DNA from: Elusimicrobiota bacterium
GTDB lineage: Bacteria > CAYTYR01 > UBA6262 > DAOVJB01
Direction of reading: 5' to 3'
DNA: 32,288 nt
NCBI GenBank assembly: GCA_030673425.1
Contig: DAOVJB010000001.1
Coordinates: 1-32,288, forward strand
The translations under genes and the position numbers were made by a program. Positions 13,334 to 13,520 of the stretch are shown one piece after another. Positions within the stretch are counted from its first letter, which is position 1, and the number at the start of each line of letters is the position of its first letter. The notes under the pieces are model-generated. The model was not told the DNA's origin and did not search any database. It was given only the letters and a program-made list of their open reading frames with translations.

Positions 13334-13377
13334 TACACTTACTCCTTTCTATAATCTTAAATTATTTTAATATATAA

Positions 13378-13414
13378 ATATAAAAACCGACTTACCTTTT
13401 CTTCGGCAACTCGG
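13378..13414 (-). terminator. Intrinsic terminator forming the expression platform of the c-di-GMP riboswitch leader
   Basis: Minus-strand RNA CCGAGUUGCC-GAAGAAAA-GGUAAGUCGG forms a 10-position stem with one G-G mismatch and one G-U pair. It is followed by UUUUUAUAUUU and sits ~45 nt upstream of the pilin ATG (13333). Confidence 0.7.
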
Positions 13415-13430
13415 CTGTCTTTTTACTGCT

Positions 13431-13520
13431 CGTTATCGGTGCACCCGGCTGTCTTTGTCTAGATTAAGACCCGTGGTTTTGCGTCTCTGTCTCACGACAG
13501 ATTTGCCTTTTCGGAAATTT
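13431..13520 (-). promoter_or_regulatory. Cyclic-di-GMP-I (GEMM-I) riboswitch aptamer candidate
   Basis: Minus-strand RNA: CCGAAAAGGCAAA-UCUGUC-GUGA-GACAGA-GACGCAAAACCACGGGUCUUAAUCUAGACAAAGACAGCCGGGUGCACCGAUAACG. This gives GGCAAA, a 6-bp helix capped by the GNRA tetraloop GUGA, GACGCAAA, a second helix CGGGUCUU/AAGAC(AG)CCG, and GGGU..ACCGA. The order of conserved blocks is the same as in Vibrio cholerae Vc2 (GGCAAA-helix-GAAA-helix-GACGCAAAGCC...GGGGUUACCGA). Confidence 0.75.

Follow-up and report, generated by a model that had tools for sequence, protein, structure and literature searches.

A predicted c-di-GMP-I riboswitch with two alternative 3′ halves precedes a pseudopilin operon in an uncultivated Elusimicrobiota bacterium

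The stretch of DNA analysed here, referred to as the window, covers 32,288 nucleotides of an Elusimicrobiota genome (assembly GCA_030673425.1, contig DAOVJB010000001.1, positions 1 to 32,288 of the forward strand) and includes a three-gene operon on the minus strand. The first gene encodes a 742-residue protein that combines a GFTLIE prepilin N-terminus, with a weak PilV-like match, and CarboxypepD_reg repeats. It is followed by a 176-residue prepilin-type protein recognized by TIGR02532, the model of prepilin N-terminal cleavage and methylation (21.1 bits against a cutoff of 16.3), and by a 402-residue protein with a weak GspK/PilX-like N-terminus. An initial annotation, made from the sequence alone, had described this cargo as a tip-complex-like I/J/K set of minor pilins. 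The prepilin N-termini bear out the general part of this description and, judged from the protein sequences, the name pseudopilin set is justified; the specific I/J/K assignment is not, being over-specific for matches as weak as the PilV-like and GspK-like ones.

The divergent neighbor of the operon encodes a lysyl-tRNA synthetase and not pilus machinery. About 7 kb from the riboswitch described below, on the plus strand, we found a PilT-type ATPase with an N-terminal PilZ domain (3925-5298), followed by a CheY-receiver/CheX-CheC-like protein (5335-6615) and a DUF520 (YajQ-family) protein (6662-7156). Since PilZ domains bind c-di-GMP, as do some proteins of the YajQ family, the window may contain several c-di-GMP inputs to pilus function. 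Also on the plus strand, a 195-residue protein (205-792) begins with what resembles a signal peptide and matches the SpoVG domain in two stretches, a combination that seemed unusual, SpoVG being otherwise familiar as a cytoplasmic protein.

The operon and its leader contain the following features, all on the minus strand. Short motifs and the translation start were located by sequence inspection, the aptamer 5′ half by Rfam cmscan alignments (full and trimmed input), and the terminator hairpin by folding.

9299..10507, minus: 402-residue protein, last gene of the operon
10520..11050, minus: 176-residue prepilin-type protein
11105..13333, minus: 742-residue pilin-like protein, first regulated gene
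13331..13347, minus: ribosome-binding site AAGGAG (13347-13342) and ATG at 13333
13386-13376, minus: terminator U-run UUUUUAUAUUU
13416-13385, minus: intrinsic terminator hairpin AGCCGA-G-UUGCC / GAAGAAAA / GGUAA-G-UCGGUU
13401..13421, minus: distal 3′ half AAGACAGCCGAGUUGCCGAAG
13422..13433, minus: spacer between the two 3′ halves, poorly conserved in the alignment
13434..13455, minus: proximal 3′ half AAGACAGCCGGGUGCACCGAUA, with the atypical tail CACCGAUAAC
13446-13436, minus: motif GGGUGCACCGA
13473-13466 with 13455-13446, minus: bulged helix CGGGUCUU / AAGAC-AG-CCG
13466..13516, minus: aptamer 5′ half
13485-13478, minus: junction motif GACGCAAA
13501-13486, minus: P1a helix UCUGUC/GACAGA with a GUGA loop
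13507-13502, minus: GGCAAA
13548..13576, minus: sigma-70-type promoter, TTGACA (13576-13571), 17-nt spacer with TG, TATAAT (13553-13548)

Read on the minus strand from 13580, the promoter is followed by UUCCGAAAAGGCAAA, the 6-bp hairpin with its GUGA loop, GACGCAAAA, the strand CCACGGGUCUU and a 10-nt loop. Then come AAGAC-AG-CCGGGU, GCACCGAUAAC, a 12-nt spacer, and a second AAGAC-AG-CCGAGU continued by UGCCGAAG, after which AAAAGGUAAGUCGG, the U-run and AAGGAG lead, with 8 nt in between, to the ATG of the 742-codon ORF. The 5′ half is made up of the P1 5′ strand UUCCG, AAAAGGCAAA, the P1a hairpin, the junction motif, and the P2 5′ strand AACCACGGGUCUU. Inspection of 13580-13331 thus recovered, on the minus strand and in place, every element listed in the initial annotation, including the consensus promoter (12 of 12 positions), GGCAAA, the GUGA-closed helix, the bulged helix, and the ribosome-binding site and start codon of what it had called the giant pilin.

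Rfam cmscan gave a single match at gathering level in the whole 32-kb window, to RF03167 (clan CL00126, c-di-GMP-I) at 13401-13516 of the minus strand, with 67.8 bits (gathering score 59, E = 3.3e-14). One further member of CL00126 exceeded its own gathering score and was masked by clan competition; the output keeps only the best family per clan, and the score of RF01051 is therefore hidden, also with trimmed input. When the input was cut to the boundaries of the initial annotation (13432-13530), RF03167 still reached 59.6 bits (E = 2.4e-14), in agreement with the GEMM-I class assigned there. Together, the Rfam score and the terminator statistics given below are far beyond chance. The three helices of the class are present (P1, the GNRA-capped hairpin, and the bulged P2/P1b) with covariation support, and the element lies where a leader riboswitch is expected, with a promoter upstream, a terminator that shares 13401-13416 with the distal 3′ half, and a ribosome-binding site and ATG downstream. 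By class membership, then, this leader is a genuine riboswitch of the c-di-GMP-I clan.

The best-scoring model was RF03167, a “GGC” variant, and not RF01051, in all five aptamers scored (the one in the window and those of the related contigs L001, L002, which has two, and L110). We read GGC, from the RF03167 consensus, as probably denoting the three nucleotides that contact the ligand. In Vc2 of Vibrio cholerae, the key residues for c-di-GMP recognition are G20, A47, and C92 (PMC11218506, PMC11705072), and their equivalents in the cmscan alignments are G13507, A13480, and, depending on the 3′ half, C13406 in the distal or C13439 in the proximal copy; that model positions 10/37/75 correspond to Vc2 20/47/92 is our own mapping. 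The consensus G of RF03167 (GACGC-G-AA) is replaced by A in all five aptamers, so that the window aptamer lacks the G at the A47 equivalent that strictly defines c-di-GMP-I-GGC. It also lacks the A for G20 that acts as the single-nucleotide specificity switch of c-GAMP-sensing relatives (GEMM-Ib; PMC9481103), since G13507 is present. The triad is therefore the canonical G/A/C, neither of the GGC nor of the c-GAMP type, and points to c-di-GMP as the ligand.

The initial annotation gave a single 3′ half, the one now called proximal, which pairs with the P2 5′ strand; a second, distal copy was absent from its description. In the best Rfam alignment, some 40 nt are passed over as an insertion within the P2 loop, and the 3′ half aligned is the distal copy GACAGCCGAGUUGCCGAAG (13419-13401). 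The alignment with the distal half gives the 67.8 bits reported above and that with the proximal half the 59.6 bits. A repeat search identified the two copies as a direct repeat of 14 nt with 93% identity, 34 nt apart. The distal half has two possible partners, either the P2 and P1 5′ strands (with a C-A mismatch in P2) or the 3′ arm of the terminator, for which it doubles as the 5′ arm. The window leader has one 5′ core and thus not the two complete aptamers of a tandem riboswitch: with the 3′ half alone repeated, the copies compete for one 5′ half and do not form independent switches. A further alternative pairing may exist between UUGCC of the distal copy (13407-13411) and the complementary GGCAA of the 5′ junction (13502-13506). 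In the predicted minimum free energy (MFE) structure of a transcript ending at the distal copy without ligand, this 5-bp helix closes the whole aptamer, both in the window and in L001.

The terminator hairpin (13416-13385) folds with −16.5 kcal/mol (z = −5.3), and none of 200 dinucleotide shuffles folded as well. A simple terminator scan missed it because of an internal mismatch and an AU-rich upper stem, and explicit folding was needed to find it. Its stem reads CCGAG/GUCGG in the window and CCGGG/GCCGG in L002, a compensatory change. The terminator and U-run of the initial annotation are thus real, although they had been placed as a separate module about 20 nt downstream of the aptamer. Sharing its 5′ arm with the distal 3′ half, the terminator competes for part of the aptamer and is no module of its own. 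The terminator loop and 3′ arm GAAAAGGUAAGUCGGU (13386-13401, minus strand) are 81% identical to the aptamer start GAAAAGGCAAAUCUGU (13497-13512), which hints that the arm may descend from the 5′ end of a tandem aptamer that formerly lay next to it, although this could also be chance in A-rich sequence.

The 742-residue protein has two homologs (76% and 68% identity), on contigs L001 and L002, and both contigs carry a riboswitch at the same place. The promoter is also kept, in L001 and upstream of the first aptamer of L002, and the three-gene order is the same in L002; the 402-residue protein has five homologs on contigs too short to reach the leader. Aptamer scores in L001, L002 (two aptamers) and L110 range from 62.6 to 69.1 bits. 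L001 has the same layout of one 5′ half and two 3′ halves (hereafter, twin layout) with a different terminator. In L002, two aptamers stand in tandem, a true doublet in which the first is plain and the second is of the twin type. The only 3′ half of the first aptamer doubles as the 5′ arm of a terminator that is nearly the same as that of the window, and this aptamer folds into the three-helix shape by MFE alone; as modelled, it is a classical mutually exclusive ON design. In the multiple alignment, the distal copy and terminator of the window correspond to the single 3′ half and terminator of this simple unit, relative to which the proximal copy and spacer form an insertion of about 39 nt.

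A scan of genomes with the twin-half pattern returned mostly chance matches in GC-rich genomes, and L110, from the single-cell genome of a more distantly related “Candidatus Omnitrophota” bacterium, was the only real new case among the matches listed. Its twin-type riboswitch (201-330, 69.1 bits) adjoins a LysS-LolCE-LolD-McsA-McsB block, as does that of the window (LysS 49% identical), and precedes a PAS-GAF-HD-GYP protein (375-2009). HD-GYP is a c-di-GMP phosphodiesterase type, and with this cargo the switch would form a feedback loop on its own ligand. Among the metagenome matches listed, of which about 60% were chance matches in coding DNA, we found at least 46 non-redundant real aptamers, including four already known, and at least 21 of them had two 3′ halves. 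Two candidates, L177 and L215, were set aside as doubtful, leaving at least 15 new twin leaders from soil and water contigs of many unrelated lineages. Overall, the twin layout recurs in Omnitrophota-like genomes and many metagenome contigs, in at least 18 further non-redundant leaders (L001, the second aptamer of L002, L110, and at least 15 metagenome contigs). Apart from L002, no further tandem arrangement appeared among the twin leaders.

To assess how far the pairings are conserved, 18 twin leaders were aligned in fixed register. All six pairs of the P1a hairpin covary. For the proximal P2, 95.0% of cells are paired, with changes on both sides at three pairs, while the distal P2 has 98.3% of cells paired and both-side changes at two pairs, a figure partly forced in the metagenome leaders, where the search pattern fixed several distal positions, and unbiased only for the window, L001, and L002. 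Control partners slid by one to three columns gave 25 to 45% pairing. At pair 48:63, a U-A to A-U exchange is followed by both 3′ copies. The proximal copy has been kept in the window, L001, and the second aptamer of L002 although the adjacent loop and spacer have diverged. Around half of the proximal copies deviate at the junction or tail yet still pair, as with the CACCGAUAAC tail in the window and AUCGAUAAC in L152; in L144, L176, and L235, pair 44:69 is mismatched. Several metagenomic twins, on the other hand, have a fully canonical proximal copy. Which of the two copies degenerates cannot be told from the metagenome set, because the pattern forced the distal copy to consensus.

Predicted energies depend on how much of the leader has been made. 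In the window, the unliganded MFE structure uses the proximal copy. For transcripts reaching the end of the distal copy, proximal pairing is favored by 2.4 kcal/mol in the window, 2.1 in L001, and 0.6 in L002, and the value for L110 is −0.4; in the other leaders, the two pairings lie within 2.6 kcal/mol of each other either way, except in L177 (−6.7). Before the terminator 3′ arm is made, the distal copy wins P2 in L110, L126, L135, L144, L190, L217, L219, L235, and L237, and in many metagenomic twins it extends P2 into the loop of the proximal hairpin. Once the terminator 3′ arm is included, the combination of proximal P2 and terminator wins by 11 to 29 kcal/mol (in the window, the terminator adds about 11 kcal/mol), so that without ligand the leader should terminate.

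On these grounds, we consider it probable that the leader is a c-di-GMP-I riboswitch which controls the three-gene pseudopilin operon through its terminator and is ON when the aptamer is built with the distal half, the proximal half being a competitor. The single 5′ half (P1 5′ strand, P1a hairpin, and P2 5′ strand) could pair with either of the two near-identical 3′ halves. In the absence of ligand, the proximal copy, which is made first, would occupy the 5′ half, leaving the distal copy free to pair with the 20 nt that follow it into the terminator, which would stop transcription. c-di-GMP would lock the aptamer built with the distal copy, which is closer to consensus and forms a better P1, and the locked copy would withhold the 5′ arm from the terminator, so that RNA polymerase could read into the pilin-like genes. 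As an internal competitor, the proximal copy would ensure a tight basal off state, and the threshold for the ligand may be higher because of it. As to the transcription attenuation by c-di-GMP proposed in the initial annotation, the wiring, in which the terminator 5′ arm is the second copy of the 3′ half, makes anti-termination by the ligand more likely than ligand-induced termination.

Orthology, the L002 tandem, and the energetics favor this direction, in which the proximal copy would be a competitor, and that c-di-GMP prevents termination is, in our judgment, rather likely. The distal copy is orthologous to the functional 3′ half of the simple ON aptamer of L002, a type of aptamer/terminator exclusivity shown experimentally for the pilM GEMM-I ON switch (PMC9262584). 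Moreover, the twin unit of L002 sits behind this ON unit, and opposite directions for one ligand would cancel. The distal copy also keeps aptamer features that the terminator does not need, namely GAAG, which falls in the terminator loop, and the bulged AG, whose G would, by analogy and according to our mapping, form a long-range pair with GACGC like G83-C44 of Vc2 (PMC11705072). The frequent junction and tail deviations of proximal copies that still pair point the same way, as does the cargo of the twin leaders, which comprises pseudopilins, a PilX-like protein, secreted or surface proteins, CheY-like receivers, and an HD-GYP enzyme, none of them flagellar.

Evidence against this direction comes from the proximal aptamer, which reaches the gathering score, is transcribed first, is used in the unliganded MFE structure, and has a higher predicted stability in the window than the distal form, whose P2 there contains the C-A mismatch; the canonical proximal copies of several metagenomic twins also count against it. 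Binding of c-di-GMP to the proximal aptamer would lock the conformer that terminates, and the response would be OFF or non-monotonic (with both conformers binding, possibly a band-pass). In such an OFF switch of the same class, which corresponds to the wiring implied by the initial annotation, c-di-GMP would lock the first-made proximal aptamer and the distal copy would always serve the terminator, while without ligand the distal copy would displace the proximal one from the P2 5′ strand and act as antiterminator. The P2 extension by the distal copy and its early win in many metagenomic twins are what an invading antiterminator would need. We regard this reading as unlikely, though it deserves attention. 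In the window, the terminator can be sequestered by no pairing but the distal one. Without ligand this pairing is disfavored by the 2.4, 2.1, and 0.6 kcal/mol given above for the window, L001, and L002, which would mean no antiterminator and, in the window, constitutive termination. In L002, the same ligand would turn one unit ON and the other OFF, and a pure antiterminator strand would have no need for the bulged AG or the GAAG tail. Besides, the known OFF switch Cd1 makes its antiterminator differently, by pairing with the aptamer 3′ strand (PMC9262584).

The proximal copy could instead be a functionless remnant of tandem rearrangement within the P2 loop of a simple ON switch that works through the distal half, which we consider quite unlikely. 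Tandem aptamers of the c-di-GMP-I class are common, with 347 doublets (PMC9481103), and L002 has such a pair, the window resembles the first L002 unit plus the insertion of about 39 nt, and the likeness of the terminator 3′ arm to the aptamer start hints at past rearrangements. A mere remnant, however, would hardly be conserved in the window, L001, and the second L002 aptamer while the neighboring loop and spacer diverged, nor keep its complementarity to the P2 5′ strand with both-side changes at three pairs, and the twin layout recurs across many unrelated metagenomic lineages. A variant aptamer for a ligand other than c-di-GMP, either c-di-GMP-I-GGC or c-GAMP-type GEMM-Ib, appears very improbable: RF03167 does score best in all five aptamers, but at the GACGC-G-AA position all five share the A of canonical c-di-GMP-I and lack its G, the position equivalent to G20 holds G and not the A typical of c-GAMP variants (PMC9481103), and an aptamer of the same type in L110 precedes an HD-GYP enzyme. 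Returning to the preferred ON reading with a proximal competitor, its wiring can be compared with that of described switches.

The element itself is of known type, and any Rfam-based annotation would flag the window aptamer. The pilA1 gene of Clostridioides difficile, cited as a parallel in the initial annotation, is reportedly controlled by a class II c-di-GMP switch, of unrelated fold. With Vc2-type riboswitches (RF01051, RF03167, RF03168), the window shares the three-helix fold with a GNRA-capped first hairpin and a bulged second helix, the GGCAAA and GACGCAAA junction motifs, the CCGA tail, and the G/A/C contact positions. It differs in its short P2, in one nucleotide missing between P1 and GGC, and in the second, competing 3′ half, and its top-scoring model is the GGC variant though the diagnostic G of this variant is absent. 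GEMM-I switches before pilus genes are already established: the pilM c-GAMP riboswitch of Geobacter metallireducens (GEMM-Ib; PMC9262584) is a transcriptional ON switch in which the aptamer 3′ strands form the terminator 5′ arm, and the distal copy of the window and the first aptamer of L002 are wired alike. However, the pilM switch responds to c-GAMP and, with its single 3′ half, stands before the pilM gene, whereas the window has a c-di-GMP-type triad, an extra proximal 3′ half, and pilin-like cargo. Cd1 of C. difficile, a c-di-GMP-I OFF switch (PMC9262584), also controls surface-appendage genes by premature termination, as proposed for the window, but there aptamer and terminator coexist. 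In tandem c-di-GMP-I riboswitches, the commonest tandem riboswitches with their 347 doublets (PMC9481103) and exemplified by the Bc3-5 triple of Bacillus thuringiensis (PMC9481103, PMC4759541), the aptamer sequence is repeated in one leader, as in L002; in the window, the 3′ half alone is repeated, with no second 5′ half.

Only the twin 3′-half platform may be new. No description of it was found in a limited literature search that included the papers on pilM and Cd1, yxjA, Bc1, and tandem riboswitches, and the tandem-riboswitch review makes no mention of partial aptamers. Three apparent precedents were discarded: the “T strand in front of A” of pilM is the normal P3 3′ strand, the strand exchange of yxjA has conventional topology, and Bc1 has two terminators and not two aptamer halves. 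We tentatively propose, as somewhat less than an even bet, that the twin layout is a distinct, selected expression platform in which a decoy 3′ half sets leakiness and the ligand threshold. Aptamers of the c-di-GMP-I class have very high affinity and bind at concentrations well below those of the ligand in the cell, and a built-in competitor could therefore explain how their sensitivity is tuned. The duplicated 3′ half would be a simple natural example of a riboswitch with an internal competitor strand, an idea that designers of synthetic switches could copy. If the proposed regulation is true, it ties c-di-GMP signalling directly to lineage-restricted pilin-like surface proteins of an uncultivated bacterium, one of them a 742-residue “giant” with carboxypeptidase-regulatory-like repeats. 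We know of no genetics for such uncultivated organisms, which makes the riboswitch one of the few readable statements on when these genes are used.

Some of the related leaders show additional arrangements. In L001, an assembly gap in the form of an N run (3564-3875) lies upstream of the orthologous leader, about 85 nt from its promoter. In L002 (9732-9978), the simple ON-type aptamer with its own terminator is directly followed by the twin-type unit with a different terminator, and in the MFE structure the leader 5′ of the first aptamer allows a pairing of GUUUGCUUUUUU with AAAAGGCAAAU that would hide the G20 region. The twin leaders L137, L193, L217, and L237 have no U-run terminator and carry a CCCCC...GGGGG hairpin after the distal copy, and in L217 and L237 the 3′ arm of this hairpin leads into a Shine-Dalgarno-like GGGGGAG just before the ATG. 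This arrangement suggests a translational version of the twin platform.
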